A stretch of DNA of 64,000 nucleotides from Candidatus Nomurabacteria bacterium (lineage in GTDB: Bacteria; Patescibacteriota; Minisyncoccia; Phycocordibacterales; UBA9973). The position numbers and the translations under genes are program-made. Position 1 is the stretch's first letter; the number at the start of each line of letters is the position of its first letter. Below, in pieces: positions 1-52,902 of this stretch. The notes beneath the pieces were generated by a model that did no database searches, was not told the DNA's origin, and saw only the letters and a list, made by a program, of their open reading frames with translations. The stretch lies in assembly GCA_026395915.1 (NCBI GenBank), contig JAPLXU010000012.1:8996-72995 (forward strand), in the 5' to 3' direction.

Positions 1-415
1 GAGAAGTTGAATATATTCCTGCCAGAGCGGGGAATCGAGAATCTTCAGAATTAATGACGGCTAAAATAAAAGAACTGGGTTGGAAACAGGAAAGAAATAT
101 AAAAGATTACATATTGAACTTGAAAAATACAGCTTACAAATCGTAAAAATTTTTCTACGTTTCTCTTTACTTTTTTCAAAAAGCATGGTAATACTTCAAA
201 GGAAACAGATCTTTAAAAACATATTGATTCGTCTGAATGCTTCAATTTCAGCCTTATTTTGCTGGTCGGTATCCTTAAAGCCTTATACAATTATATGAGG
301 AGTTAGGGATACCGATCAGTCAGAAAGTTTGGCGTAAACTGCGCCTGCAAGTTTGTCAGGAATGGCAAGCTCAAGTAATTGCGGAGACTGAAAGGTTGAC
401 GAAAGAAAAAAGCCT

Positions 416-1621
416 ATGAAGAAACAGTATGAATTTCAAGCCTCGCTTGAATTACTAGTTGGTGGTTGGCACCTCCTGCATGGAACGATTCAGTTCGGTA
501 ACGAGGGAGCCGGCGGAGCTCAAACTGTGCAGGAATCGCTGGAACAAGTCCAGGGGTTGAATCAAGAACTCAAGCCCCTCGGGATCGGGTTCCGTGTTTC
601 TGCGCACTGGTGGCACGAGCTGGCTGTCAACTCCAAGCACCCGATTGTGGGTGGGTCGGCGCACTTGAACAAGCCCCGTTGTATCGAACTGCCAGAGTGG
701 ATCGAAGGCGCCAAGAGCGGCAAATACCCGAAACCTGGCCGCTTGATTCCGCCTGGCTTTGGCACTCCTGGAGCGGATCTCGGAGCGTTCATTCATCCCG
801 ATCCGACTCGCCGGAAGTTGTGTCACGACATGATGGTCTATACCATGGAGGAGTGCGAGAACACAATGACTGCCCTCAGCATTGATGACGTCAACGGCAT
901 TTATTGGACCGGACCGGATGGGATCCGGTGGCAACGCTTGTGCAACGGCGACGATCCGCTCCTCGGCTACAAATGCAACCAGAAACTGGAGGAATGGGGT
1001 TTGGTCGTTGGCGGGGTAGGTAGTGCGCTCAAAGAAGCGCGGGAACGTGGTTTTACCAAGCGCGCGAAATTGCTCATCGAGGGCAAACCCGCAGGCGACC
1101 CCTGTTGGATTGATGTCTTCACTGATGACGTGCTGTGTTGCGAGGGAATTCGCCAAATCAATGCCATTGCCGGCGGCGAGCTCGCTTTGTGGCAATCGGA
1201 ACTCCTCCATACTCACGGCTCCGGCATCCCGTTTGCCGAAGGAATGAGGATCGCCATCAGGAACAAAGTGTTCGGTGGGCACATTCACCTCAACGCCGGC
1301 CCGGTGAGCATTCAGAAGTATGGACCGATGCTGGCCAAGCGTGGTGGAACGAGGCTCAGCAAATTTCAACAGGCGACGGATCCGGATTTTCTTCCGGGCG
1401 AAGGACCCAAAGAATGGCTGAGACATCAAACTGACGCTCTCATGGTCGGGGCCAGATGGTCGGCCTTGACTGGCAAGGTGTTCAGGGTTGAGTTTGATGC
1501 TCGCTTCAGCAGGTACGCAGACATGATGGCGAGGCTCAAGAAGTCGGCCATGTTTACGCTGGATGGGTTCAAGGAAGCGTGCGGGAAGCTCGGTTGTGAG
1601 GCCAAAACGGTCACAGTCTAG
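416..1621 (+). CDS. hypothetical protein encoded in a GC-rich (~58% GC) segment that looks foreign to this genome; no family assignable by eye
   Basis: 401-aa intact ORF. Composition contrasts sharply with the AT-rich flanks. A long antisense ORF (455-1429) is the usual high-GC artefact. A rho-independent terminator follows. Confidence 0.45.
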   Translation: MKKQYEFQASLELLVGGWHLLHGTIQFGNEGAGGAQTVQESLEQVQGLNQELKPLGIGFRVSAHWWHELAVNSKHPIVGGSAHLNKPRCIELPEWIEGAKSGKYPKPGRLIPPGFGTPGADLGAFIHPDPTRRKLCHDMMVYTMEECENTMTALSIDDVNGIYWTGPDGIRWQRLCNGDDPLLGYKCNQKLEEWGLVVGGVGSALKEARERGFTKRAKLLIEGKPAGDPCWIDVFTDDVLCCEGIRQINAIAGGELALWQSELLHTHGSGIPFAEGMRIAIRNKVFGGHIHLNAGPVSIQKYGPMLAKRGGTRLSKFQQATDPDFLPGEGPKEWLRHQTDALMVGARWSALTGKVFRVEFDARFSRYADMMARLKKSAMFTLDGFKEACGKLGCEAKTVTV

Positions 1622-1694
1622 GCAGTTTTCAGGCCCTCCAGTCCACTCGGTTTCTGATTGGTTGAGCTTACAACAATATCGGTTTTTTCAAGGA

Positions 1695-1724
1695 GGGTCA
1701 GCCAAGATCGGCTGACCCTTTTTT
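1695..1724 (+). terminator. rho-independent terminator
   Basis: Perfect hairpin gggtcagcc-aagatc-ggctgaccc followed by TTTTTT, ~75 nt after the stop at 1621. Confidence 0.7.
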
Positions 1725-1811
1725 CGTACTTCTTCGTTAAGTCTTAATAATCATTTGATATGGTATAAGATATATAAGTCGGGTGGTTATTATTATTTTT
1801 AAAAATTATTT

Positions 1812-2429
1812 ATGAATTACAATACTTTAGCGAAAAAAGAGACAGTGGAGAAAGTTATAAAAGCGCTTGGCGCTATGGGAGTCGAAGCTATTTTTGTTGA
1901 AAATGGAAAAAGCGCTTTGGAAAAAATAAAAGAATTTATTCCAGAAAAGGTTTCGGTTATGAACGGAGCTTCTGTCACGCTTGAGCAGATCGGTTTCGTT
2001 GACTATTTGAAATCCGGAAAGCACGACTGGAACAATCTCCACGAGGCGATACTTCAAGAAAAAGATCCTGCAAAGCAAGCAATGCTCCGCAAGGAAGCTG
2101 TGCTGTCCGATTATTATTTGGGAAGCGTGCATGCGCTCGCCGAGACGGGAGAGTTTATCGTCGCTTCAAACACTGGCAGTCAATTACCGCACATAGTTTT
2201 CACTTCGCCGAATTTGATTTTTGTGGTTAGCACGAAAAAGATTGCTCCGACTTTGGCCGACGCGATGAATCGTTTGATGGACTACGTCATACCACTCGAA
2301 GATAAACACATGAGAGGGAAATATGGCGTAGGCACGGCGCCAAACAAAATTCTGACGTTCACCGGCGAGAATTCGATGATGAAAAGAAAAGTGAGAATGA
2401 TATTGGTAAATGAAGATCTTGGGTTTTAA
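1812..2429 (+). CDS. LUD-domain protein (lactate utilization LutC/YkgG-like, DUF162 family)
   Basis: 205 aa. The overall pattern, including the C-terminal 'IVFVVSTKKIAPTLADA' segment, resembles LUD-domain proteins. Confidence 0.5.
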   Translation: MNYNTLAKKETVEKVIKALGAMGVEAIFVENGKSALEKIKEFIPEKVSVMNGASVTLEQIGFVDYLKSGKHDWNNLHEAILQEKDPAKQAMLRKEAVLSDYYLGSVHALAETGEFIVASNTGSQLPHIVFTSPNLIFVVSTKKIAPTLADAMNRLMDYVIPLEDKHMRGKYGVGTAPNKILTFTGENSMMKRKVRMILVNEDLGF

Positions 2430-2497
2430 ATAAATTTTGGCAAAAAAACAGCGCTCCCGTGAGGGGAACGCCGGTTTTGTGATTCCTGATTCTAGGC

Positions 2498-3865
2498 TCA
2501 GGCTGCCTTTGCGAGGTCGCTCCCGAGAACGAGATCACTCGTCTCGGAGAACTTCGGGAGTTCCCATTTGAGGGCAACTTCGACGATATTGTCGAGGCCG
2601 ACGAGGTTCGATTCGTCCGTCGGATTCATCGCGTGCCAGGCCCACGTCTTGGGATGTTCAGGTGTATTGTTATCCGCCACGATCTTGGCGAGATCAACAT
2701 TGGACTGGGCGGCGATCTCGATTCCAGTCATGTAGCCGATCGAGCCAAGCAGAAGGCTTGTGACCACATCCCAATGTTGCTGTTGGCTGGAGAAGTGGCT
2801 GGGATTGCGGAACTGGCTCAGTTCGAACTCAATTGTGAATGTTGTCTCACAGGGGTTGAGTTTCAAATCGTTGCGGGCGCCGATTTGCGCGCCGAGCCAA
2901 TCGACTTGGTGCCCATTTGCCATCGCGAGAGAGTTATGCGCTTGAACACCGGGAGGCGGTTGGTCGCCATTCATGCGACTCCAGGGTTCTCCACCGATAC
3001 GTTGGCCGAGGTATCCACAACCGGCAATGCGGCCGAGCGTAGTATTCAAGCCTTTGCCATGGAACCGGCGAATAAACCACCCATACCCAGCCTTCCTCAG
3101 CACCTTGAACGACCACTCTGGGCGAAAGCCCTGTAGGACATCGTGAGATGCGTCGTGATTGAGGAAGCACCAGCCCTTCAGACCCGCGGCTTCGACCATG
3201 CGAGCGATAACGATCCAGTGTTGAGGGGTATTTGCAATGTTCTGAGTGAACGTATCTGCCGGTGTCCAACCGCACATTGGGCAATTCTCAATAAAGAGTT
3301 TTACCCCGTACTCTTTTGCGTAGCGGATGAGCGGAATGAGAACTTCGCCGACGAGTCGCATGTTCTCCTCAATCGGGAGTTTCAGATTGCGGCCGACGAA
3401 GATCGAAACACCTTCAGTTTTCGCCCCAGCTTTGTTCAACTTGGCGGCCGCGCGGATCGCACGACGGACATGCTCGATGTTCTGACGCCGGAACATTGGA
3501 TTCTCATGGAGCAGATTCTCGAACACACCAACGGTGCCGAGCGCAACTTTTCCTCCACAAGCATCGGCGAGTTCACGGGCATCTTCATCATCCAAGTCAA
3601 CGCCGGTGCAGTCTTTGCGCGTCAACATAGCGATGTGGTGTGCAACCGGATCCGCCATCGATTCCGGAGGCACATTGGCGTGAGAGGGCGCATGAGCACC
3701 ACCCATTTCCAAGGACTCAACGCCATTAGCCACGGCCCAGGCAATCCATTTCAAGGCGGCAGTGTTTGCCGCCTTGCGGGGATCGTGAATGAACATCTTT
3801 GAGTCTGTGCCCGGAGGCGTTTGTACGGCGGCCGTAAGGACGCCGATTTTCATTATGTTTCTCAT
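2498..3865 (-). CDS. sugar phosphate isomerase/epimerase (xylose-isomerase-like TIM barrel) encoded in a GC-rich segment
   Basis: Long minus-strand ORF. The likely start is ATG at 3865 (MRNIMKIGVL...), not the upstream in-frame Met. The TIM-barrel isomerase-like pattern includes 'KLFIENCP'. GC is ~58%, far above the genome. Confidence 0.5.
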   Translation of the reverse strand: MRNIMKIGVLTAAVQTPPGTDSKMFIHDPRKAANTAALKWIAWAVANGVESLEMGGAHAPSHANVPPESMADPVAHHIAMLTRKDCTGVDLDDEDARELADACGGKVALGTVGVFENLLHENPMFRRQNIEHVRRAIRAAAKLNKAGAKTEGVSIFVGRNLKLPIEENMRLVGEVLIPLIRYAKEYGVKLFIENCPMCGWTPADTFTQNIANTPQHWIVIARMVEAAGLKGWCFLNHDASHDVLQGFRPEWSFKVLRKAGYGWFIRRFHGKGLNTTLGRIAGCGYLGQRIGGEPWSRMNGDQPPPGVQAHNSLAMANGHQVDWLGAQIGARNDLKLNPCETTFTIEFELSQFRNPSHFSSQQQHWDVVTSLLLGSIGYMTGIEIAAQSNVDLAKIVADNNTPEHPKTWAWHAMNPTDESNLVGLDNIVEVALKWELPKFSETSDLVLGSDLAKAA

Positions 3866-4097
3866 AGTCTTGGTTTGTATTTTTCCGTTGTATACCGAAA
3901 GATGCACACACATGCACCCTGTACCGCCAAAACACACTACGTGCGTTCGGCAGTAACCTTGTAAATACTATAAATATCCACAAGGCTACTGCCGAAATAT
4001 ACAGAAAAAACAAGCAAAAGAGCTCTGTTTTCAAGGTTCTAATTCATCTAATCTTCATGAGTATTACCACGAAATTGCTTTTTTCGCAAGGGCTTTA

Positions 4098-10007: not shown

Positions 10008-12905
10008 ATGATATCCCGGATATATGTGATGCCTAAGAAGATTGAGAATAAGGCAGATTCGTATCTTATCGACTCGAAATTATCCAAAAAAGAGCTTCAA
10101 AAACTCGCTGAGGCTCTCGCGAATCCCATTTTAGAAAATTATTATATCGATAGCTTTCCGACAAAAGAACTTTCTTTGAAATTTTCTTATGCGATTGAGA
10201 TAGGATTTTTACCAGGTGTCACAGACAATGTCGGCCAAACAGTCAAAGAAATTGCGACCGATCTTTTTCACTTGAAAAAAAGTTCTGATTTTCACGTTTA
10301 CACTTCTAAAATTCTGTTTGTTGAGTCAAACAAACTTGCTGATGCTCAAAAAATAGCTATGACTCTACATAATCCGCTTATCGAGAGAGCTTTTATCGCG
10401 AAAGTAGAAAATAAAAGTATGAGTTTGCCTATGAAAGCTCCAAAAGTGGTTCTCGAAAAAAAGAAGCCGGTCATAAATGTATTGTTTGAAGTCGAAGACG
10501 AAGAACTCATAAAAATCGGCAGGGAAGGAATAATGGACGAAAACGGCGGACGCAGAGGGCCACTCGCGCTTGATCTAGACTCGATGAAAGTTATCAAAAC
10601 GCATTTTGAAAAATTAAAAAGAAATCCGACGGATATCGAATTGGAATCTCTAGCGCAAACTTGGTCTGAACATTGCAAACACACGATTTTTGCTAATCCG
10701 ATAGACGATATTAAAGATGGTTTGTATAAAACTTATATAAAGGGAGCGACAAATTTGATACGTGAGAAAAAAGGAAAAAAAGATTTTTGTGTCTCTGTTT
10801 TCAGCGATAATTCTGGCGGAATAGTTTTTGATGACGATTATCTAATCACTCACAAAGTCGAGACGCACAATAGTCCTTCGGCCCTTGATCCCTTCGGCGG
10901 AGCGATCACAGGAATCGTCGGAGTCAATCGCGACACGATCGGTTTCGGTTTGGGCGCCAAGCCTGTGGCAAATGTTTACGGATTTTGTTTTGGTTTTCCC
11001 GATGATGAAAGAAAATTTTTTAGAGATAAAAATTTAACACAGCCTATGCTTTCGTCGAGAAGAATTATTGACGGGGTGATAAAAGGCATCAACGTCGGAG
11101 GCAATTGTTCCGGTATACCGACCCTCTCCGGTTTTGTAAAATTTGATGATCGTTATCGGGGAAAGCCTTTGGTATTTGCCGGAACTGTTGGTTTGATCCC
11201 AAGAAAATTAAATGGGAGAGAAATGCACGAAAAAAGAGCTCGAGCGGGGGATTACATTGTCGTCGTAGGCGGTAGAGTCGGCAAAGATGGCATTCATGGA
11301 GCAACTTTTTCTTCTGTTGTTATGGATTCGAATTCTCCGGCGACCGCAGTGCAAATAGGCGACCCGATCACTCAGAAAAAATTAAGCGATGCCATAGTCA
11401 AAGAGGCGCGCGATTTAGATTTGTATAACAGCATCACGGACAACGGCGCAGGTGGACTTTCTTGTTCCGTGGCGGAAATGGCAAAAGAATGCGGTGGCGC
11501 GAAAGTTTTTTTGGATAAAGCTCCACTCAAATATCCCGGCCTTCAGCCATGGGAAATTTGGATTTCAGAATCCCAAGAGCGGATGACCTTATCAGTTCCG
11601 AAAGGAAAATGGGGAAAGTTTCAAAAATTGATGGAAAGCCGAGGCGTAGAAGCGACTGTGATTGGAGAATTCACAAATTCAGGAAAATGTATTGTCGAGT
11701 GGAAAGGCAAAGTTATAATGAATATTGACCTTGAATTTTTGCATAATGGTTTGCCGAAACACAATTTAATTACTAGTTCTGTCATGCAGACCCCTCCCAA
11801 CCCTCCCCTTATCAAGGGGAGGGCGAAGGGTGAGATGTACACAAAAATTTTTGAAAATTTACTTGCAGACAAAAATATCAGCGGATTTTCTTTCATCTCT
11901 GAGCAATATGATCATGAAGTACAAGGGTCTTCAGTATTAAAACCACTCTCTGGTCCTGGCAAGATAAACACCGACGCGCAAGTCTTTTGTCCTGTTCTTA
12001 ATTCTAAAAAAGGAGTCGTTCTTTCATCTGGAATTTGTCCTTCGTATGGAGACGTCAGTACGTACCACATGGCAACTTGCGCGCTCGATACTGCCGTACG
12101 AAATGCTATTGCTTGCGGTGGGACTCTTTCTCATTTAGCAATTTTGGATAATTTTTGTTGGTGTTCATCTAATGATCAAAAGCGTTTGGCTCAACTTGTA
12201 GAATCTGTGAAAGCTTGTTACGACGGAGCCGTAAGTTATGGTACTCCGTTTATTTCGGGCAAGGATAGCATGTTCAACGACTTCAAGGGTTATGACGAGA
12301 AAGGTAATCCTGTTGCTATTTCTATTCCGCCAACTTTACTTATTTCCGCTATTAGCGTTATGCCTGATATCTATAAAACTGTTTCACCTGAATTTAAAAA
12401 TAGCGGAGACGCGATTTATCTGTTGGGAGAAACGCACGACGAGCTCGGTGTTCCAAAAGTTGATTTTGAAAAAAATTTAAAAACATATTTAGCTCTTGAG
12501 AAGGCGATTCAGAAAGAATTAGTAGCTTCTTCGATTTCTATAACTTCAGGAGGATTTGCTGTAGCGCTTGCTAAAGCATGTGTTGGGGGAATGTTAGGCT
12601 GTAAAGTTTCCTTAAACCAGATAGCGCTTAAAGCGCTATCTGTGGAAACTAAACTTTTTTCTGAAAGTCAGGGCAGAATCTTAGTATCGGTGTCCCTGAA
12701 AAAGACTAAACAATTCGAAAAACTTTGCGCAAGTGTTGCTTTTACGAAACTGGGAAAAACTAATAAAAGTCCTGCCCGCAATGCTTTGCATAACAATGCA
12801 GGCGGGGGTAGAATCACAATAATGGATGGCAAAGATAAAATAGTCGAAACGAACGTCAAAAAACTTCATAAAATTTATCACAATTTTTCGGACGAAATGA
12901 AATAA
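10008..12905 (+). CDS. purL: phosphoribosylformylglycinamidine synthase, PurS-PurL fusion (FGAM synthase II with N-terminal tandem PurS-like domains)
   Basis: N-terminal PurS-like signatures ('LANPILENYYI' and 'LHNPLIERAFI'), then the PurL core with 'HNSPSALDPFGGAITGIVGVNRD'. 965 aa. Carries two in-frame GC-rich inserts (11788-11836 and 12771-12808). Confidence 0.85.
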   Translation: MISRIYVMPKKIENKADSYLIDSKLSKKELQKLAEALANPILENYYIDSFPTKELSLKFSYAIEIGFLPGVTDNVGQTVKEIATDLFHLKKSSDFHVYTSKILFVESNKLADAQKIAMTLHNPLIERAFIAKVENKSMSLPMKAPKVVLEKKKPVINVLFEVEDEELIKIGREGIMDENGGRRGPLALDLDSMKVIKTHFEKLKRNPTDIELESLAQTWSEHCKHTIFANPIDDIKDGLYKTYIKGATNLIREKKGKKDFCVSVFSDNSGGIVFDDDYLITHKVETHNSPSALDPFGGAITGIVGVNRDTIGFGLGAKPVANVYGFCFGFPDDERKFFRDKNLTQPMLSSRRIIDGVIKGINVGGNCSGIPTLSGFVKFDDRYRGKPLVFAGTVGLIPRKLNGREMHEKRARAGDYIVVVGGRVGKDGIHGATFSSVVMDSNSPATAVQIGDPITQKKLSDAIVKEARDLDLYNSITDNGAGGLSCSVAEMAKECGGAKVFLDKAPLKYPGLQPWEIWISESQERMTLSVPKGKWGKFQKLMESRGVEATVIGEFTNSGKCIVEWKGKVIMNIDLEFLHNGLPKHNLITSSVMQTPPNPPLIKGRAKGEMYTKIFENLLADKNISGFSFISEQYDHEVQGSSVLKPLSGPGKINTDAQVFCPVLNSKKGVVLSSGICPSYGDVSTYHMATCALDTAVRNAIACGGTLSHLAILDNFCWCSSNDQKRLAQLVESVKACYDGAVSYGTPFISGKDSMFNDFKGYDEKGNPVAISIPPTLLISAISVMPDIYKTVSPEFKNSGDAIYLLGETHDELGVPKVDFEKNLKTYLALEKAIQKELVASSISITSGGFAVALAKACVGGMLGCKVSLNQIALKALSVETKLFSESQGRILVSVSLKKTKQFEKLCASVAFTKLGKTNKSPARNALHNNAGGGRITIMDGKDKIVETNVKKLHKIYHNFSDEMK

Positions 12906-12960
12906 TAAATAAAACAATACTCAAACTTAGCGATAGCAGAATTTGAGTATAGATAATAAA

Positions 12961-18597: not shown

Positions 18598-20626
18598 CTC
18601 AAAAGAAAAATTAAAATTGGCAGTTCTTATTTCCAACGCAGGCACTGGCACAAACCTTCAGGCCATCATTGATGGAATCGAGAAAGACAAAATCAAGATG
18701 GAAATTTGCGCAGTAGTTTCTGATGTTTCCGATGCGGCTGGTTTGGATCGAGCGCGAAAACATAATTTAAAAATCGAAATCTGTCCGACGAAAGAAGCCC
18801 TGCTTCCGCTTTTGCAAAGATTAAATCCGGACTTTGTAGCTCTCGCCGGCTGGAAGCAGATTATTTTAGACGAAGTGATTCTCGCTTTTCCGAATAAAAT
18901 TTTGAATTTGCATCCTGGCTTGATTCCAGATAGCATTGACGGCATAGTAAAAAATCCTGATGGCACTGAAGCGCTTTGGAACAAGGGCAAGTTGACAAAT
19001 AAAGCTATTCAAAATTTCTTGGACAAAAAAGCTACTTTTGCCGGTTCAAGTATTCATTTCTTGACACTTAATTTTGATTTTGGACCGGTTTTAGGTAGAA
19101 CTTTTGAAAAAATTCAAGCCGGAGACACAGTGGATTCTCTATATGCTAGATTAAAAAATAAGGAGAACGAGCTTTATGAAGAAGTTTTAGAAAAATTAAC
19201 CTCACCCCAGCCCTCTCCTGAGAGGAGAGGGGGAATAAATAGACAAAAAATTTTAATAATTGGAAGCGGGGGACGAGAACATGCTATCGGCTGGAAAGTA
19301 GCGCAGTCACCTAGAGCAGGGCAGATTTTTTTTGCACCCGGAAATGCTGGAACGGCGGAACTGGGAACGAATGTAGCAATAGATGCGAAAGATATTTCTA
19401 AACTTTTAGAATTTGCGAAAAATGGAAAAATTAATCTGACTTTGGCTTTACCAGACGATCCGCTCGCTCTCGGCATTGTGGACGAATTTCAAAAAGCTGG
19501 TTTGCGAATCTGGGGTCCTACAAAAAGAGCCGCGCAGATCGAATGGTCAAAGGCGTTTTCAAAAGATTTCATGCGTCGACACAATTTGCCGACTGCGAAA
19601 TTTGAGATATTCAGCGATTTTGAAAAGGCGAAAAATTACGTAAAAAATCAATCATTGCCTATTGTCATCAAAGCAAGCGGGCTCGCTTTAGGAAAAGGCG
19701 TGATTATTTGTGAAACTATAAAAGAAGCGAACGAAACGCTTGAAAATATACTTGTTAAAAAAATATTTGGAGACGCGGGAAACGAAGTTGTGATAGAGGA
19801 GTTTCTTGTCGGACCAGAGATTTCCATTCATGCGTTTTCTGACGGAAAAGATTACAAAATGTTTCCGCCATCACAAGATCATAAAAAAGTCGGAGAAGGG
19901 AACACTGGACCGAATACGGGAGGCATGGGGACGATCAGCCCTTTACCGTTCGTGGATGAAAAACTTTTGAAAACTATCGAGGACACGATCGTTGCGCCGA
20001 CTTTGAAAGCTCTAGCCAAGGACAACGCGCCTTTTGTCGGAGTGCTCTATCCCGGGTTAATACTTACCAAAGATGGGCCGAAAATTTTAGAATACAACGC
20101 GCGCTTCGGTGATCCGGAAACGCAGACATACATGCGACTCTTGGAAACTGACTTACTAGATATTTTCGACGCATGCATTGATGGCACGCTGAAAAATTTA
20201 GAAATCAAATGGAGACCAAAGTCAGCCTGCACGATAGTGCTAGCTTCGGGAGGTTATCCGGGAAAATATGAAAAGGGAAAAGAAATTTTGGGAATTTCTC
20301 CCCTCCTTGTGGAGGAGGGGGTAGGGGGTGGTGATTCAGACCCCCTCTCAAATCTCCCCCTTAGCAAGGGGAGAGGTTCTCAACCACCTCGCCTTTCAGG
20401 CTCTCCTCCTTCGAAAGGAGGAGAGGACGTCGTCATCTTCCACGCTGGCACAAAGATGGAAAATAAAAATTTAGTAACGAATGGCGGAAGAGTGCTCGGA
20501 GTTTCGGCTGTGGGTAAAAATTTGCAAGAAGCGCTCAAAAAAGCCTATAAAGCAATAGAAAAAATTTCTTTTGAAGGAATGCAGTATAGAAAAGATATAG
20601 GCAAATCGGCGTTGGAATTGAAATAA
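18578..20626 (+). CDS. purD: bifunctional GAR transformylase / GAR synthetase (PurN-PurD fusion)
   Basis: N-terminal PurN pattern ('LAVLISNAGTGTNLQAII', 'NLHPGLIP'), then PurD ('ILIIGSGGREHAIGWK', ATP-grasp). Overlaps purF by 20 nt. Contains two in-frame GC-rich hairpin inserts (19199-19235 and ~20293-20430). Confidence 0.8.
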   Translation: MMSQKNNSKEKLKLAVLISNAGTGTNLQAIIDGIEKDKIKMEICAVVSDVSDAAGLDRARKHNLKIEICPTKEALLPLLQRLNPDFVALAGWKQIILDEVILAFPNKILNLHPGLIPDSIDGIVKNPDGTEALWNKGKLTNKAIQNFLDKKATFAGSSIHFLTLNFDFGPVLGRTFEKIQAGDTVDSLYARLKNKENELYEEVLEKLTSPQPSPERRGGINRQKILIIGSGGREHAIGWKVAQSPRAGQIFFAPGNAGTAELGTNVAIDAKDISKLLEFAKNGKINLTLALPDDPLALGIVDEFQKAGLRIWGPTKRAAQIEWSKAFSKDFMRRHNLPTAKFEIFSDFEKAKNYVKNQSLPIVIKASGLALGKGVIICETIKEANETLENILVKKIFGDAGNEVVIEEFLVGPEISIHAFSDGKDYKMFPPSQDHKKVGEGNTGPNTGGMGTISPLPFVDEKLLKTIEDTIVAPTLKALAKDNAPFVGVLYPGLILTKDGPKILEYNARFGDPETQTYMRLLETDLLDIFDACIDGTLKNLEIKWRPKSACTIVLASGGYPGKYEKGKEILGISPLLVEEGVGGGDSDPLSNLPLSKGRGSQPPRLSGSPPSKGGEDVVIFHAGTKMENKNLVTNGGRVLGVSAVGKNLQEALKKAYKAIEKISFEGMQYRKDIGKSALELK

Positions 20627-20721: not shown

Positions 20722-22455
20722 TTACGGAGTACGTATCGACGACGATGATGGCAAACCCTCGATGCCCTCAGCGTTTTTCCAGTCTGGGTCAGCTAGACTT
20801 GATATTCCAAAACTATTTGGCGACCAAATAAGTGCTCCACCGCCACATTGTTCAACGTTGTTGGCAGTGTCTATTAGTCCGCCACACCCATTACAACAGT
20901 CACCAAGGAGCTGACTTCCCATCCAAGCGAACTGGTTGGTGACTTGAACTTCACCTCTCAATTCGAAAAAGTAGGTTGCCCCCGCCGAAATAACGATTGG
21001 TGTTTGGGCGTACATGTTTAGTACTCCCGGCGAACCGTTGAAGTTCGTAGCCGAGAATTTTTCGCCGGTGGCCAGATTGTAAAGGTTTATGTTTTGAATT
21101 GTCGCCCCTTGAAAGTTAATCCAAAGAGCAATCATGTGAATGCTTATTGAGCCACTCACATTTGCAGAAACCTTGAATTGAAGCAACCGGCCATCCATCA
21201 TTCCAGTCGACGGCAGGGTTTCCAGTGTGAATGTCGGAAATGACTTGAACACCCAAGCTCCTCCGGGCGTACGTCCATCTCCGCAGGCTTGAATTACTCG
21301 GCCTGAGTCCATTCCAATGCCAACTGTGCGGTCAGGATTGGAATCGTCAATTGCAACACCAACTTGGTGTCCGGAAACGGTTAAAGCTTCGCTGATACCG
21401 ATCGATGAAAGGTCTGCCTTGATTGTCAAGGTTTTACTTGCATTCTTCGGAATAGTGAAATGAGTTAATGGGACAAACATGTTCGTGCTCGCTGGAAAGT
21501 AACCATATCCAATTTGGGTGTTGCCATCCCAAAGGCTCAGTCTTTCGATGCAGGCCGGATCGCCGTTTATATGCAACCCAACACTTGTGAGCGACATATC
21601 CTCGTAAGACGCGCTGAACTTGAACACGCTCAATGTCACGTTAGCGCTTCCCGCTGCCACCATCTGAACATAAGGGGTCGAAGCATCGGCCTCGAATGTC
21701 AATTGGCAAGGCAAAGATTCGCGAAAGCGATAAAACGCGTGAGCATTTGTGCCGACAGGCAACCAAAGAGCAGTGTTTGTTGATGCCGCCGTAACCATGT
21801 CGCCTAACACATGCCAGTTGATGAGGTCATAGGATTCCTCGATTTGATATCGATAGCCAGTTGTCCCGTGGATAACAAAGCTTCCCATACCGCTTGTAAT
21901 CGTGAAATCTAGTTTCCCCCGATTGATCGAGGGCAACCCAAGGATTTGGATAAACGCCAGAGTCGTTGCCACCGGGGTGACTTCAACAGCGTTTCCGCTT
22001 GTTATGCCCACACATGTGATCGGGCTACCCAAATTCACCGCAAATTCCCCATGAGCATCGGACAAAATGTCGCACTTGAGTACGAGCGTTTTCACTGTAC
22101 CTTGAGTGATTATCAACATATTGCCGAAGTTGTAGGTGTATGGGAGTGTCGCTGCCATCGTGCTCAGTTGTCCAACTTCCGGATCAAACAAAGACCAGTT
22201 GACCATGAAGTCAGGCTGGCATCCGTTTTGCACTCGCAGGCCAAGCGGCATGGAAGTCACTTTGACATCCTCGTCTGACCCCATCGCGTCAAACGTGATG
22301 AGGTAAACCGTCTGCCCAGGCGCTGAGCCCGGAATCATCGGTTCGAGATTTGGTTGGTTGTTAATTGCCACATTGAGAGTTCCAGCCCCGAGGCTGGTCA
22401 ACATGGAACAAACGAGCACGAAGCTCGCGGTGAGACTGATAAGCATTTTCTTCAT
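20722..22455 (-). CDS. secreted hypothetical protein with N-terminal signal peptide; GC ~50% (higher than genome)
   Basis: 'MKKMLISLTASFVLVCSMLTSLGAG' looks like a signal peptide. 577 aa, Cys-rich C-terminal tail. No recognisable family. Confidence 0.5.
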   Translation of the reverse strand: MKKMLISLTASFVLVCSMLTSLGAGTLNVAINNQPNLEPMIPGSAPGQTVYLITFDAMGSDEDVKVTSMPLGLRVQNGCQPDFMVNWSLFDPEVGQLSTMAATLPYTYNFGNMLIITQGTVKTLVLKCDILSDAHGEFAVNLGSPITCVGITSGNAVEVTPVATTLAFIQILGLPSINRGKLDFTITSGMGSFVIHGTTGYRYQIEESYDLINWHVLGDMVTAASTNTALWLPVGTNAHAFYRFRESLPCQLTFEADASTPYVQMVAAGSANVTLSVFKFSASYEDMSLTSVGLHINGDPACIERLSLWDGNTQIGYGYFPASTNMFVPLTHFTIPKNASKTLTIKADLSSIGISEALTVSGHQVGVAIDDSNPDRTVGIGMDSGRVIQACGDGRTPGGAWVFKSFPTFTLETLPSTGMMDGRLLQFKVSANVSGSISIHMIALWINFQGATIQNINLYNLATGEKFSATNFNGSPGVLNMYAQTPIVISAGATYFFELRGEVQVTNQFAWMGSQLLGDCCNGCGGLIDTANNVEQCGGGALIWSPNSFGISSLADPDWKNAEGIEGLPSSSSIRTP

Positions 22456-37222: not shown

Positions 37223-37283
37223 AAGTTGTTTCTGTTTAACTACTTTACTTAACTAAAGTGAACAGAAAAAACATATCAAATAT

Positions 37284-47922: not shown

Positions 47923-48747
47923 GTGAATAAAAAATTTTTTATATATATATTGTCGCTTTTTGTATTATTCCTTTTTTTAATACCAGCAATTAGTTCTTTC
48001 TTCCTGAATTTAGAACAAAAAAGAGCTGATAAATTGCTTTTAGAGCAAGGGCGCATTTTTGAAAAAATTAAAAAAGATAAACAAGACAAAATTTATTTAA
48101 CCGGCAAATTTGATCCATCACAAAGAAATGATTTTTCCCCTGTTCCCGCGGAATTAAACATTGGCGGATATAAAATGTATTTGAGAAAAGAAACTTTAGA
48201 CGCTTTTTTGAAAATGGAAGAAGCTGCGGAGAAAGACAACGTGGATTTGAAGATAGCTTCTGCCACCAGAAATTTTGATTATCAAAAAAAACTTTGGAAT
48301 GATAAATGGACTGGAGTAAAGATCGTGGACGGAAAAAGTTTGTTAAAAAGTATTCCAGATGAGCTTGAAAGATTTAAAAAAATACTTGAATATAGCGCCG
48401 TCCCCGGCGCTTCGAGACACCATTGGGGCACAGATTTCGATATTAATGACGCAACTCCTGAATATTTCGAAACCGAAAAAGGAGAGAAAGTATATGACTG
48501 GCTCGTTGAAAACGCTCCCTCATTTGGCTTTTGCCAGCCGTATAATGTGAAAGAAAGCGAAAGAGCAACTGGCTACAACGAAGAAAAATGGCATTGGTCA
48601 TACGCGCTTTTATCAAAAAATTTTACGGAAGAATACAGAAATTTAATAAAAAATGCAGATATAAAAGGATTTGATGGGGATGAATATGTTCCCTCTTTTG
48701 ATTTAATTAATGATTATGTTTTAGCTATCAATCCAGATTGCCTCTAA
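47923..48747 (+). CDS. M15-family D-Ala-D-Ala carboxypeptidase (VanY-like)
   Basis: N-terminal TM. 'SRHHWGTDFDI' is the zinc-binding motif of M15B/VanY peptidases. Confidence 0.7.
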   Translation: MNKKFFIYILSLFVLFLFLIPAISSFFLNLEQKRADKLLLEQGRIFEKIKKDKQDKIYLTGKFDPSQRNDFSPVPAELNIGGYKMYLRKETLDAFLKMEEAAEKDNVDLKIASATRNFDYQKKLWNDKWTGVKIVDGKSLLKSIPDELERFKKILEYSAVPGASRHHWGTDFDINDATPEYFETEKGEKVYDWLVENAPSFGFCQPYNVKESERATGYNEEKWHWSYALLSKNFTEEYRNLIKNADIKGFDGDEYVPSFDLINDYVLAINPDCL

Positions 48748-48780
48748 TTACATATTTACGCCATGGCTTAAATGTGTAAA

Positions 48781-50553
48781 TCAATATACTTCCTGTTGAT
48801 AACATTTTTCACAGTAAACAATCTCAGGCCTGTCTGGAGAATAAGAAGTATCAAATTCGACTTCACATCTTTCTGTTCCATGAAAATGTTGACCGGTCGC
48901 TTGTGGTGAGCCTGCCAAACCACACATGCACGTTCTTTTCCATAATTTTAACGCAGGCATAGCTTTATATCTTTCGTAATAACGGCAGTTTGGACACAAA
49001 ATCGGAAGCGGTATGTTATGTTTTTTGTAAAAAAGAAGTTCGTAATTAGTTAAACGAAAAGCGACGTTGCATTGTTGATCGCACTTCCCTTCGTGCGCAC
49101 AACCCAAAACTTCGTTCAAAATTCCGTCATTCACTTCGCCTATGTTGTCTGGAATTTTTTCTGCAGAAACTGTAACATTAAATTTCTTTGCTTCAGACTC
49201 ATGCCAAGGATAACTTTTTTCTTCCGCCGTCTCTTTTGAGAGAGGAAAAAATTCTTGCGCCAAAGTTTCATTGTATGCCCAAGGTGAAAGTTCAATCGGG
49301 AAAAATTCTCCATATTTATAGATTCTCCCCTTTTTATCTTTGAAAGGAATATCGTTCATCTGCCTTATTATTTCTTCGCGTAATTTAGCAAATTCTTTTT
49401 TCGAATAAACTTTATTAAAAATTGCGTTCTCAGCGTTCCTGAGTGAAATACAGCCGAGAATATTCGTACAATCCTTACAAGACTCAGTATAGTCCGCATT
49501 TCTCACCGATTCCAACGCAGAATAAGAAAACTTAACATTGTAATCATTCATAGCGCCAGTAGCATATTCATAAAGTAATTCTGATTTACCAACATGATCA
49601 AGATCCATGCAATCTTTGAAATCAAATGCTCGGTAACAATATTTCGCATTCTCTACATTATATATTTCAAAACAATTTTTGGCATTTTTAACATTTAGAA
49701 GATTATTGCCCGTCACATTGACGCATTTGTTAATGTTGGCAAATCTAAAAATTGCTTTCTCCTTAATTTTTTTAAATTCTTCAGCCAAGATCTGACGCGA
49801 AGCTCTGCTTTTTAGATTGAATTTTTCAAATTCTTTTAAATACTCTTCCCTAGAATATTGTTCGTTACGAATGCAAAACTTTTTATTGCGCAGATTGCTT
49901 GATAAAAAACAATTGCTGCAATTCACACAGTCAACAAGATAATATGAGTCTAAACAACCTCTGCAAAGCAAAAGATACTGGGAATTATAATTCCCCTGCC
50001 CTTCAACATTCTCATATAAACTTTCCGATCCATTTATAACATTAAGACAATCAACAATATCTCTTGATTTATCTATAGACTTTGAATAAAAAATATTTTC
50101 CGATTCCTTTACAACTGAAACAGATAAATAAACATTTCTTGATTCTCCAACCAAATTAGCATAATCGCAATTGATTGCATTCCTCTGCCACAAAGCCAAA
50201 CGCGGAACAGTTTTCGAAAATTCTCTATACTGCTCAAAAAATGGCTTGGAAAAATCGTAATCTCGCCCATAAGATTCTGCATCCCATTTATCTCCATACC
50301 AACATTCTCGACAATAAACCGGAAAAGGTGCAGATTCGTGATGTATAGAAATTATATTCTTTCCACAAAGATTGCAAATACGACGATACAAAGATCTTTC
50401 GTTACGCCAAGCAAAACGTCGTATCTGTCGACACTCTGGGCAAAAAGTCGGTGGTGGAACTTTTATTTTTTCATAAAACGAAAAATCATCTGACTCAATC
50501 GTAAAGTCTTTTTTGCAGTTTTGACAGATTTTGTTTTCGATTTTTTGTTCCAT
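48781..50553 (-). CDS. cysteine-rich protein, paralogue 3
   Basis: 590 aa. N-terminus 'ICQNCKKDFTIESDDFSFYEKIKVPPPTFCPECR'. C-terminus '..IVYCEKCYQQEVY'. Confidence 0.7.
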   Translation of the reverse strand: MEQKIENKICQNCKKDFTIESDDFSFYEKIKVPPPTFCPECRQIRRFAWRNERSLYRRICNLCGKNIISIHHESAPFPVYCRECWYGDKWDAESYGRDYDFSKPFFEQYREFSKTVPRLALWQRNAINCDYANLVGESRNVYLSVSVVKESENIFYSKSIDKSRDIVDCLNVINGSESLYENVEGQGNYNSQYLLLCRGCLDSYYLVDCVNCSNCFLSSNLRNKKFCIRNEQYSREEYLKEFEKFNLKSRASRQILAEEFKKIKEKAIFRFANINKCVNVTGNNLLNVKNAKNCFEIYNVENAKYCYRAFDFKDCMDLDHVGKSELLYEYATGAMNDYNVKFSYSALESVRNADYTESCKDCTNILGCISLRNAENAIFNKVYSKKEFAKLREEIIRQMNDIPFKDKKGRIYKYGEFFPIELSPWAYNETLAQEFFPLSKETAEEKSYPWHESEAKKFNVTVSAEKIPDNIGEVNDGILNEVLGCAHEGKCDQQCNVAFRLTNYELLFYKKHNIPLPILCPNCRYYERYKAMPALKLWKRTCMCGLAGSPQATGQHFHGTERCEVEFDTSYSPDRPEIVYCEKCYQQEVY

Positions 50554-50601
50554 AACTTTTTCACTTTAGTTTAGTAAAGTCTGAGCAAGGACTCCCCTTG
50601 C

Positions 50602-52302
50602 TCAATACACCTCTTGCTGATAACACTTCTCACAATAAACTATCTCAGGTCTATCAGAAGCATAACTGGTTTCGAATTCCACCTCGCAACGTCCTTCGTG
50701 ATGAATGTGTTTTTTGTCACACATGCATTGTCTATGCCAGAGTTTGTTTGGCCCGCGATTTTTTAGACGTGTTTCATGCCGACATTCAGGACAATTCCGC
50801 GGGATAGGTATTTTCATTCTTCTATAAAAGCTCAGCTCATCTGCAATAATTCTATAATTTTTATTGCATTCTTTACACACAAAAACTTCTTTGCTCACAT
50901 TAAAATCAGTAGGCAACTCTGAAATTGAATCAGGAAAATTTTTCCAAACTATAGTTTCTTTACCATAATTACCTCGCGGTGTATCTTCCCATTTGAAACC
51001 TTGAGCCAAAGCTTGTTCTTTTGTTAGTGGAAATTCATCCACAACAGAAGATTCGTTGTAACCATAAGGAGATAATTCTTTCGGAAAAAAGTTTCCGTAA
51101 ATCTCTTCTTGTTTCATTCGTTCAATAATTTCAGTACGTAATTTTATGTATTCCTCCTTACTGTATTGTTTATTCAAAATGCAATAAGATCCTTGAATTA
51201 AACCAGCACAACCAAAACAATTATTGGAATTCGGGCAGTTCAAACAATATTGCATAAAACTTGATTCCCAACAATAATAACTACATATTATATTTGAGCA
51301 TTGCATACCTATGTTCAAAGAATTATAGACAAGTTCCGCTGTTCTCCCTGATGTATTGCAATCCATGCAATTTTTTGCTACACGCCAAGCGTGTATACAA
51401 TATGCATTGTCTTCCGCGTCATAAGAATGGAAGCAATAACGATTATTTTTTACATTCGTCATGTAATTACCAGTAGAATTGACAACATTAAAAACTTCAG
51501 CGAATTTTCTTGGTTTATTTTTTATAAAATTTCTAAATTCTTTTTTAAAATTTTCTACTCCTGAATGTGTGTCTAGTTTAAATGATTTTAATTTTTCTTC
51601 GTATTCTTCTTTTGTGTAAGGTTCGTTGAAAATGTGATATTTTTGCTGACGTAAATTGATACATCCAAGACAATTGGTGCATCCTCGGCAATCAAACAAA
51701 AAGGCACTATTAAGACAACTGTAACAACCTTTACAAAAACGCAAGGAATGGCAATCATAACAATCATCAACTTCGTAAGAAAGTTCTACTTTATTTGTAA
51801 AAGAACAATCAACTAATTCTTTAGAGAGTTGTATCCAGTAACAATTTATGCAATTCTCATTATTTGAGCTCTCCATAATCATGTAGCAATTTTTTGTATC
51901 GGCAGTGTGATTAAGATATTCAGAATTGATACTATTCATATGGACCAGAGCTGGTTTTGGAACTTTCTGCCATAATTCATTAAATTGTTTAAAGAACGAT
52001 TTTTTAGGATCATATTCCATACCGTAATTTTTTCCTTTTAAATCATCGCTGCGCCAACACTCATGACACCATACAGGATAAGTTTTATTTGCACTAAACA
52101 TAGAAATAGTGCTTCTCTTGCAATTATCACAGTTGCGCTTATAAAGAAACCTTTCGTTTCTAAAAATTAGTCTTAGTTGCGAACGGCATTCCGGACAAAA
52201 AGTCGGCGGTGGAACTTTGATTTTTTCGTAGAACGAAAAATCATCTGGCTCTATGGTGAAGTCTTTTTTGCAGTTCTGACATTGTCTCGTTTCACTTTTC
52301 AT
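50602..52302 (-). CDS. cysteine-rich protein, paralogue 4 (tandem with paralogue 3)
   Basis: 566 aa. Same N- and C-terminal modules. The GC-rich hairpin tgagcaagg-actcc-ccttgctca overlaps its stop (50582-50604). Confidence 0.7.
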   Translation of the reverse strand: MKSETRQCQNCKKDFTIEPDDFSFYEKIKVPPPTFCPECRSQLRLIFRNERFLYKRNCDNCKRSTISMFSANKTYPVWCHECWRSDDLKGKNYGMEYDPKKSFFKQFNELWQKVPKPALVHMNSINSEYLNHTADTKNCYMIMESSNNENCINCYWIQLSKELVDCSFTNKVELSYEVDDCYDCHSLRFCKGCYSCLNSAFLFDCRGCTNCLGCINLRQQKYHIFNEPYTKEEYEEKLKSFKLDTHSGVENFKKEFRNFIKNKPRKFAEVFNVVNSTGNYMTNVKNNRYCFHSYDAEDNAYCIHAWRVAKNCMDCNTSGRTAELVYNSLNIGMQCSNIICSYYCWESSFMQYCLNCPNSNNCFGCAGLIQGSYCILNKQYSKEEYIKLRTEIIERMKQEEIYGNFFPKELSPYGYNESSVVDEFPLTKEQALAQGFKWEDTPRGNYGKETIVWKNFPDSISELPTDFNVSKEVFVCKECNKNYRIIADELSFYRRMKIPIPRNCPECRHETRLKNRGPNKLWHRQCMCDKKHIHHEGRCEVEFETSYASDRPEIVYCEKCYQQEVY

Positions 52303-52350
52303 GATTTTCTTATAAAAGGTAGCAAACTCTGCTATCGCAGAAACTGGTAC

Positions 52351-52902
52351 CTATTCTCCTATTTTATTTTCCTCTTCTAAACTTTCTGAGGCAACATTAA
52401 TAGAATTATTCACTTCACCATAATCCGGCAATTCATCTACAGATTTTATACCCATATACGATAACAATTCAAAGCTGGGTTTGTAAATATAACGCCTGCT
52501 ATCTTTTGGATCAAGTATTCTTTCTATCAATCCGCGAACAGATAATGCTCGCAAAGTGAAACTGGAATTGACTCCCCTTATATAATCGATCTCCGCTCGG
52601 TTCGCACCATTTTTATAAAGAATAATGGATAATGTTTCCAAACTTGCTTTTGAAAGTTCTTTGTTCAGTTCTTCTTTTTGCAATTCTTCAAACAAACTTG
52701 ATAATTCTGGCGCTGTGCCAAGCGCAATATCAGAATCTTTTTCAATCAATACTATTCCTCTCTCTTTTAAATTGTTTTTTAATCTAAGAACGCCTTCATT
52801 CATTTCCGCCTCCTCAACTTTTAAAATCTCTGCAAGTTTCTTTCGCGACATTGGTTCTCCTTTCCAAAACAGTATAGCTTCTATTTTTGATTCTAAATTC
52901 AT
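52351..52902 (-). CDS. scpB: segregation and condensation protein B
   Basis: 'IEAILFWKGEPMSRKKLAEIL' winged-helix pattern. 183 aa. Directly downstream of scpA. Confidence 0.85.
   Translation of the reverse strand: MNLESKIEAILFWKGEPMSRKKLAEILKVEEAEMNEGVLRLKNNLKERGIVLIEKDSDIALGTAPELSSLFEELQKEELNKELSKASLETLSIILYKNGANRAEIDYIRGVNSSFTLRALSVRGLIERILDPKDSRRYIYKPSFELLSYMGIKSVDELPDYGEVNNSINVASESLEEENKIGE

Follow-up and report, generated by a model that had tools for sequence, protein, structure and literature searches.

Two tandem genes, designated P4 and P3, lie on the reverse strand of a 64,000-nucleotide stretch of Candidatus Nomurabacteria DNA (assembly GCA_026395915.1, contig JAPLXU010000012.1, positions 8,996 to 72,995; hereafter the window) and, together with a second pair on the forward strand, P1 and P2, encode members of one protein family. 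It appears somewhat probable that P3 and P4 are anciently diverged and individually conserved members of this very large family of predicted cytoplasmic multi-zinc-finger proteins of about 570 aa, and that they serve as differently specified adaptors. Family membership, architecture, evolution and selection are established by the data, while the adaptor mechanism and a model of partly separate expression of the two genes are inferred. The genes themselves are ordinary, being intact tandem paralogues already deposited as hypothetical; the family is large, conserved, structurally unmatched and unstudied.

A Large Family of Paceibacteria-Type Genomes

An exhaustive profile search recovered 2,213 clusters at 50% identity (E<=1e-30) that aligned end to end, a number that represents a lower bound on the size of the family. 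Against the family profile, P1 to P4 scored 936-986 bits over their full length. In a word-indexed search at least 7,963 matches were obtained, all of them named 'hypothetical' and assigned to Paceibacterota, Nomurabacteria and Staskawiczbacteria. In the data searched, the family was confined to Paceibacteria-type genomes of the candidate phyla radiation (CPR). No relatives were found among the 2.9 million viral contigs of IMG/VR, and a phage or mobile origin is thus unsupported. A search of the literature revealed no description of the family.

The initial annotation regarded P4 and P3 as a second tandem pair of paralogues on the strand opposite to P1 and P2. Our analysis located both open reading frames (ORFs), intact, exactly where they had been placed (Table 1), in head-to-tail order and with the reported 48-nt spacer between them (50554-50601). 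Neither a frameshift nor a premature stop, which would mean decay, was detected in any of the four genes, each of which is full length in relation to the family consensus. By exact-sequence look-up, P4 corresponds to NCBI MCX6752201.1, a 'hypothetical protein' of a Candidatus Nomurabacteria metagenome-assembled genome, and P1 is recorded in NCBI with the ATG start at 12961 as a 'zinc-ribbon domain containing protein'; the existing annotations of the window's family genes carry one or the other of these two names. P3 is alone in its 90% cluster.

The genomic comparisons reported below are based on 75 loci from species-representative genomes and on the window, amounting to 192 members from 78 sources (labelled L001 etc.). 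About 30 orthogroups were distinguished among the family members.

Protein Architecture and Predicted Fold

The members begin and end with a pair of zinc fingers. Between the pairs lie two beta-solenoid-like modules, homologous to each other, and after them a linker (YGxFFP..SPFxYNE..FPLTK..G..W.D) that is strongly conserved. Each finger pair consists of a CxxC-x24-CxxC treble clef and a CxxC-x17-CxxC finger. The N-terminal and the C-terminal pair are homologous (E=5e-15), and the central modules R1 and R2, of about 135 aa, also match each other (E=2e-12). AlphaFold models built on deep alignments were obtained for P4 (pLDDT 92.4, pTM 0.92) and P3 (pLDDT 91.7, pTM 0.92) with the same order of elements, i.e., fingers, a beta-rich module with a helix, a second beta-rich module with a helix, the linker and the closing fingers.

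Pfam and NCBIfam see only the terminal fingers, as zf_Tbcl (PF13451) and zf_Tbcl_2 (PF23477/TIGR04272) and mostly below the curated cut-offs; the same picture emerged when 80 diverse members were run on Pfam. For PF13451, which has a cut-off of 24 bits, P1 reached 34 bits and P2 17.4 bits, and P3 and P4 gave no match; homology of the fingers across P1-P4 is clear. The models of the CxxC-x17-CxxC type yielded 15.3 bits against a cut-off of 27 and 13.8 bits against one of 36, and the spacing itself is present in the second fingers of P4 (C58-x2-C61-x17-C79-x2-C82 and C539-x17-C557-x2-C560). The central part of about 380 aa matched nothing in Pfam (80 members), NCBIfam, PADLOC or PHROGs. Sequence searches of the PDB chains with P4 and with a 144-sequence profile were equally negative, and Foldseek comparisons of the P3 and P4 models with the PDB, and of the P4 model with BFVD, gave no match at E<=1e-3, the hits being generic beta-helix and zinc-ribbon structures only. 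The PADLOC models of anti-phage defence had no meaningful match to P1-P4. Neither a signal peptide nor a membrane segment is visible in P1-P4, and the family members seem, judging from their sequences, to be cytoplasmic.

Zinc binding by P3 and P4 may be expected from the conserved Cys4 sites and from work on a related domain: domains of the CxxC-x17-CxxC type bind zinc, as determined by inductively coupled plasma mass spectrometry (ICP-MS) for small proteins of Methanosarcina (PMC12704099). P1 retains none of the four cysteines of its second N-terminal finger (PSSKSGEM...VYDISEWW). This finger is dispensable in the family as a whole, since about half of the members are without the site.

An abundance of cysteines, 34-42 in each of the four proteins, could also be taken to indicate metal or redox buffers, namely zinc or copper stores or thiol buffers in which copy number sets capacity. 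The zinc-binding finger type agrees with such a role, as does the finding that CutA1, a protein related to divalent ion tolerance (PF03091), adjoins family genes in 6/6 CutA1 loci (L017, L035, L039, L064, L065, and L069), next to members of different orthogroups. However, buffers would have no need for about 30 orthogroups with conserved, paralogue-specific surfaces made of residues other than cysteine. Many cysteines of the central modules are, moreover, dispensable, and the predicted fold is elaborate and confident. We thus believe that a buffering role is very unlikely.

A departure from the common architecture was observed in L003, where an intact C-type member of 392 aa (11757-12935) has lost one central module in frame ('one-module' variant). 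The loss is consistent with recombination between R1 and R2. This apparently truncated gene follows the P4 orthologue and was considered as a decaying P3, a proposal that was rejected given that it is an intact C-type gene minus one module.

Conservation Within and Between Paralogues

The closest relative of the window in our sample is L078, in which the P4 orthologue is 88% identical to P4. The respective identities are 83% for ScpA, 79% for MraY, 79% for FtsW, 75% for ScpB and 63% for VanY. P4 is under purifying selection, and its orthogroup evolves more slowly than MraY and FtsW. Gene conversion was considered as a source of the near-identical conserved termini and rejected, because synonymous sites in these termini have diverged.

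The distribution of conservation along the protein differs between the family and the orthogroup. Family-wide, the segments 130-180 and 290-345 are the least conserved (0.32 and 0.26, respectively), while in orthogroup B, to which P4 belongs, the same residues reach 0.76 and 0.68, as compared to 0.59-0.64 for the fingers. The segments that vary most among paralogues are thus the most conserved inside the orthogroup. Such a pattern would be expected of a common zinc-finger scaffold with recognition surfaces that are fixed for each paralogue, and it suggests that recognition is paralogue-specific. It is this conservation within orthogroup B of the paralogue-variable segments that leads us to favour differently specified zinc-finger adaptors.

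Are the Pairs a Maintained Unit?

The four genes had been interpreted in the initial annotation as the product of an old duplication of a two-gene unit maintained as a pair, with P1 and P4 on the one hand and P2 and P3 on the other as potential partners. Pairwise identity among P1-P4 is 36-47%. The partner grouping is supported by our analysis: the quartet (P1,P4 | P2,P3) was recovered in 89/100 neighbour-joining bootstraps, and two inserts are common to P2 and P3 and missing from P1 and P4. Both window pairs run from a gene of the 'short' class to one of the 'long' class. When all arrays were considered, the bias in this direction was modest, with 27 junctions short→long and 13 long→short (permutation P=0.001, with loci that are not independent) and, among unique orthogroup adjacencies, 23 vs 11 (P=0.03). 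In addition, 12/22 two-gene arrays are short→long, and the succession of orthogroups B and J seen in P4 and P3 recurs in a second genomic context, in L064. These data agree with an ancestral short→long unit that was duplicated and then kept since its products cooperate, for example as a heterodimer.

However, the inserts were found to mark deep classes, 'long' and 'short', which are common to many orthogroups. P1-P4 represent four separate ancient orthogroups among the about 30, with orthologues 57-88% identical as opposed to 36-47% between paralogues. The partner of the P4 orthologue, furthermore, differs in every close relative. P4 orthologues are 56-88% identical and fall into more than 120 90%-clusters, and the scpA-scpB-P4 synteny is also found in L003, L005, L078, and L080. 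In L078 the next gene is a different paralogue (Ab), 41% identical to P3, while in the other close relatives the neighbour is M, C, one-module C, A, or none. The gene at the P3 position is replaced in L078, L080, L003, L005, and L008 and absent from L001 and L006. Orthogroup J, that of P3, comprises 5/179 sampled members in varying contexts, i.e., after B in L064, after A in L076 and after grpE in L010. At the other pair, L053 shows the order purL-[P2 orthologue, 70% identical]-purQ-purF, as in the window, and carries no P1-type gene; the 123-aa ORF that precedes the P2 orthologue there is unrelated, and its interpretation as a family remnant was rejected. Singletons are divided almost evenly into short (28) and long (26), and the array junctions contain 61 different adjacencies among 74.

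P4 resides stably in the scpB-mraY interval, with P3 as its variable partner there, and P2 resides stably between purL and purQ, with P1 as its variable neighbour. Given that the stable member is located upstream in one pair (P4) and downstream in the other (P2), an independent assembly of the window pairs within a birth-and-death array system fits better than the duplication of a maintained unit. The P4/P3 pair is not an operon-level unit. B→J is found once more in another context, that of L064, and some pairing is thus possible. Of the earlier interpretation, the partner grouping was retained, but the maintenance as a pair was not, with P3 and P1 swapped or missing in relatives; the duplicated unit is in our opinion doubtful, though it deserves consideration. 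The related statement that family genes always occur in head-to-tail pairs is accurate for the window and does not extend to other loci, where array sizes vary widely.

Arrays and Their Genomic Neighbours

Across the sample, family arrays invariably occupied a single strand and contained 1 to 9 genes. They are set among housekeeping genes, for example in the scpB-vanY-mraY interval (about 13 loci), in the grpE-dnaK-dnaJ region and between purL and purQ (the window and L053). In Patescibacteria bacterium AH-259-L05, one 154-kb contig (L013 and L070) carries at least 16 family genes in arrays of 9 and 7 that occupy about 28 kb. In a reduced genome, an expansion of this size is extreme.

Arrays of the chaperone region are often interleaved with long and short genes of TraG/TrwB-like ATPases. 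Paired TraG/TrwB/HerA-like ATPase genes between dnaK and dnaJ were recorded in L002 (2212-4353 and 10121-11569), L030, L037, L047, L064, and others. The long form (660-770 aa) possesses a canonical CxxC-x17-CxxC finger, CSxCxKxTxVPFxPxxGRPVYCKDC, and a Pro/Lys/Glu-rich tail, and the short form (480-520 aa) is devoid of both.

Such neighbours raise the question of whether the family proteins are substrates or partners of TraG/VirD4-like (HerA/FtsK-type) ATPases and of DnaK, perhaps as adaptors that carry cargo to a machine for secretion or DNA handling connected to an epibiotic lifestyle. TraG/TrwB-like ATPases are indeed the commonest non-family neighbour (26 genes in 17/78 loci), adjacent to family genes in 11/17 of these loci, and arrays often have a long ATPase paralogue on one side and a short one on the other. 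Arrays also come directly after grpE in 7/7 grpE-containing loci, and the CxxC-x17-CxxC finger of the long ATPase form is of the same type as that of the family. The similarity of the fingers is, however, generic, and no ATPase of this kind accompanies the four family genes of the window. In L030 the ATPase genes are adjacent to each other with no array between them, and the association may reflect shared synteny or an insertion hot spot. A conservation of 88%, above that of MraY, would also be rare for secreted effectors. An ATPase-dependent role of this kind is therefore quite unlikely in our view.

Hairpins and Palindromes at Gene Boundaries

Before the first gene of both window pairs stands a hairpin whose apex, GCGATAGCAGA (CTGC-GATA-GCAG), is invariant. 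Its lower stem covaries, with compensatory double changes in 6/7 pairs, and in an unbiased survey it was the top family-enriched intergenic k-mer. The covariance model retrieved 11 copies in 1.3 Mb, in mixed orientation, of which 8/11 touch family genes; apart from the window, the hairpin is found in L014, L016, L028, L037, L058, and L078. It is not present in Rfam. We regard it as a candidate family-linked element whose association is unconfirmed, because a palindrome located after P3 looked equally family-specific and failed a motif-first scan.

The latter palindrome, TTTA(A/C)GCCATGGCGTAAA, occurs within the sampled loci in 6 vs 0 spacers and is thus family-specific in appearance; as CATTTACGC-CATG-GCGTAAATG it was among the most family-enriched intergenic k-mers. 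In a reciprocal, motif-first scan of metagenomes, about 8/84 motif-selected copies adjoined a family gene. The palindrome was accordingly rejected as a family-specific element and behaves in that scan as a general one. The form TTTACGCCATGGCGTAAA (window 48755-48772; L081-L160) had 117 exact metagenome matches, often 5-40 nt past a stop codon, and L085, L128, L149, and L158 contain two copies separated by 420-440 nt, in the manner of sequences that flank a small element.

The combinatorial arrays at a few hot spots inside conserved operons are reminiscent of integron-like mobile cassettes, bounded by conserved palindromes and rearranged by site-specific recombination. The high enrichment of the two elements described above and the position of the GCGATAGCAGA hairpin ahead of the first gene in both window pairs would suit such a mechanism. 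On the other hand, the low proportion of family-adjoining palindrome copies in the metagenome scan argues against it, and the hairpin touches 8 of about 190 family genes, without uniform orientation. There is also no integrase among the annotated neighbours, and the synteny of orthologues is kept across genomes about 75-88% identical. Mobile cassettes are hence a highly improbable explanation.

As described in the initial annotation, a GC-rich perfect hairpin, TGAGCAAGG-GGAGT-CCTTGCTCA, overlaps the stop of P4, with a 9-bp stem that begins at the TGA. The tail behind it is GACTTTACTAAAC. A canonical Rho-independent terminator was rejected, as the stem is present but the T-run is missing and the terminator scan did not call the hairpin. 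It was also rejected as a special feature of this pair, since the window contains 13 distinct perfect hairpins with stems >=9 bp, several-fold over the Markov expectation. Stems >=8 bp are located behind 7% of the genes outside the family and 10% of those within it, compared with 1% in shuffles, and unrelated hairpins occupy the same spot behind the P4 orthologues of L004 and L005. The P4-stop hairpin is a general gene-end feature of these genomes. Further GC-rich perfect hairpins, CCCTCC...GGAGGG, lie inside the purL and purN/purD ORFs of the window (11801-11823, 19211-19231, and 20401-20425), and L041, L048, and L074 have sequences like these behind family genes.

The spacer between P4 and P3 contains, in addition, the palindrome ACTTTA-N6-TAAAGT, one of 2 copies in the window (37242-37259 and 50563-50580) vs 0.02 expected. 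Overall, 30 copies were detected, of which 28 are intergenic, and in 20 cases a start codon follows within 60 nt; the last group is composed of 8 copies before family genes and 12 before others. The gene-oriented form is roughly ACTTTACTWAACTAAAGT, located 2-60 nt before starts and sometimes present as tandem 18-nt duplicates, and the loci concerned include L003, L023, L027, L033, L040, L045, and L076. ACTTTA-N6-TAAAGT is a general start-proximal motif of the clade and may be a promoter, operator or 5'-leader element. The hairpins and palindromes around the pair are mostly general gene-boundary signals.

Table 1. Positions of the family genes, their neighbours and the boundary elements in the window.
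Feature	Position	Strand	Remarks
P1	12961-14625	+	'Short' class, orthogroup O (rare); 554 aa; earlier possible start 12943
P2	14665-16410	+	'Long' class, orthogroup A (commonest)
P3	48781-50553	-	Intact ORF, 590 aa; 5.6% Cys; 'long' class (two inserts), orthogroup J
P4	50602-52302	-	Intact ORF, 566 aa; 7.4% Cys; 'short' class, orthogroup B
VanY/M15 D-Ala-D-Ala carboxypeptidase	47923-48747	+	PF02557; convergent with P3
scpB	52351-52902	-	ScpB, PF04079; upstream of P4
Hairpin with invariant apex GCGATAGCAGA	52317-52352	-	Between scpB stop and P4 start
Hairpin, second GCGATAGCAGA copy	12917-12950	+	Between purL and P1
Palindrome TTTA(A/C)GCCATGGCGTAAA	48755-48772		8 nt after P3 stop, at the convergent P3/VanY junction
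Palindrome ACTTTA-N6-TAAAGT	50563-50580		9 nt upstream of P3 ATG
Hairpin TGAGCAAGG-GGAGT-CCTTGCTCA	50582-50604	-	Perfect 9-bp stem, 5-nt loop, GC-rich; starts with P4 TGA stop

The M15 carboxypeptidase and scpB genes, named in the initial annotation as neighbours of the pair, were both recognized by their Pfam domains. On the P3 side, mraY, ftsW and murG come next beyond the carboxypeptidase gene. The P1/P2 pair is inserted between purL and purQ of the purine operon. Two other features of the window were recorded. Positions 1-4000 have 48-52% GC, compared with about 37% elsewhere, and contain overlapping ORFs on both strands, with no rRNA found by Rfam. An ORF on the reverse strand (20722-22455) lies in a patch of 43-48% GC and encodes 577 aa; the N-terminus of this protein resembles a signal peptide, and Pfam gave no match.

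Proposed Role and Significance

The arrays inside housekeeping operons (scpAB-dcw, grpE-dnaK-dnaJ, and purL-purQ) evolve by birth, death and reshuffling, and at the scpB locus P4 is the resident gene, with P3 as one of a number of neighbours that can replace each other. In the adaptor reading that we favour, a common activity may be conferred by the conserved fingers and the linker, either zinc-dependent nucleic-acid binding or attachment to a partner that all members share. The surfaces of the solenoids, which differ between paralogues and are highly conserved within orthogroups, could provide each paralogue with its own fixed target. The pair would then consist of two differently specified adaptors and not of an obligate heterodimer. 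Finally, the hairpin at the P4 stop, followed by the start-proximal palindrome before P3, might allow the two genes to be expressed partly separately.

A more far-reaching version of this proposal is that the family comprises lineage-defining recognition proteins, essential to Paceibacteria, with a hitherto undescribed double beta-solenoid/four-zinc-finger fold. Every conserved orthogroup would have a fixed target of its own, either a nucleic acid or a protein, the family would work with the interleaved TraG/VirD4-like ATPases and the DnaK system, and the GCGATAGCAGA hairpin would be the family's own cis-acting recognition or regulatory element. We consider this version unlikely.

Paceibacteria genomes of about 1 Mb have little spare room and still keep from 4 to more than 16 copies of a 1.7-kb gene, individual copies of which surpass MraY and FtsW, essential enzymes of the cell wall, in conservation. 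With more than 2,000 50%-identity clusters, a confident but unmatched fold and no annotation, the family constitutes a sizeable part of CPR 'dark matter'. If the targets of the paralogue-specific surfaces were identified, a core process peculiar to these organisms would probably come to light.

Comparison With Known Systems

The second finger of each terminal pair has the same spacing as the TIGR04272/PF23477 domain, known for example from small proteins of Methanosarcina mazei. Weak HMM matches to it were given by 31/80 family members, and P3 and P4 stay under the curated cut-offs, with 15 bits as against 27. The domain is known from small single-domain proteins, whereas here it is one of four fingers in a protein of 570 aa. 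The first finger of each pair resembles PF13451 zf_Tbcl ('probable treble clef domain'), which it matches in the arrangement CxxC-x24-CxxC with F.I..DDF.FY..K..P.P..CP.CR. P1 is above the cut-off of this model, as already mentioned, and 31/80 members match at E<=0.1; phage 'zinc-ribbon domain proteins' were the only BFVD fold matches. PF13451 covers about 45/570 residues and is a domain without established function.

Concerning the central modules, the only PDB structures that aligned to them were left-handed beta-helix proteins, i.e., LpxD/LpxA, the C-terminal domain of GlmU, gamma-carbonic anhydrase and the spruce budworm antifreeze protein. The period-3 ladder of Cys, Ser and Leu (e.g., C181...C214) recalls a solenoid core. 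With E>=0.01, TM<=0.23 and rmsd of 9-20 Å, the resemblance is generic and does not amount to homology. A left-handed beta-helix acyltransferase or gamma-carbonic anhydrase was rejected as well, considering that none of the 80 members has a Hexapep match, that the best Foldseek E-value is 0.01 and that the family has no invariant His that could serve in catalysis or metal binding.

As far as genome organization is concerned, the closest parallel is offered by lineage-specific tandem paralogue families of reduced genomes, which share the same-strand arrays of 1-9 diverged paralogues and the birth-and-death turnover. The arrays described here take up a sizeable share of a genome of about 1 Mb. 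Families of this type usually encode fast-evolving surface or effector proteins, whereas the present proteins are, on the evidence of their sequences, apparently cytoplasmic, and their orthogroups are conserved above the level of MraY and FtsW.

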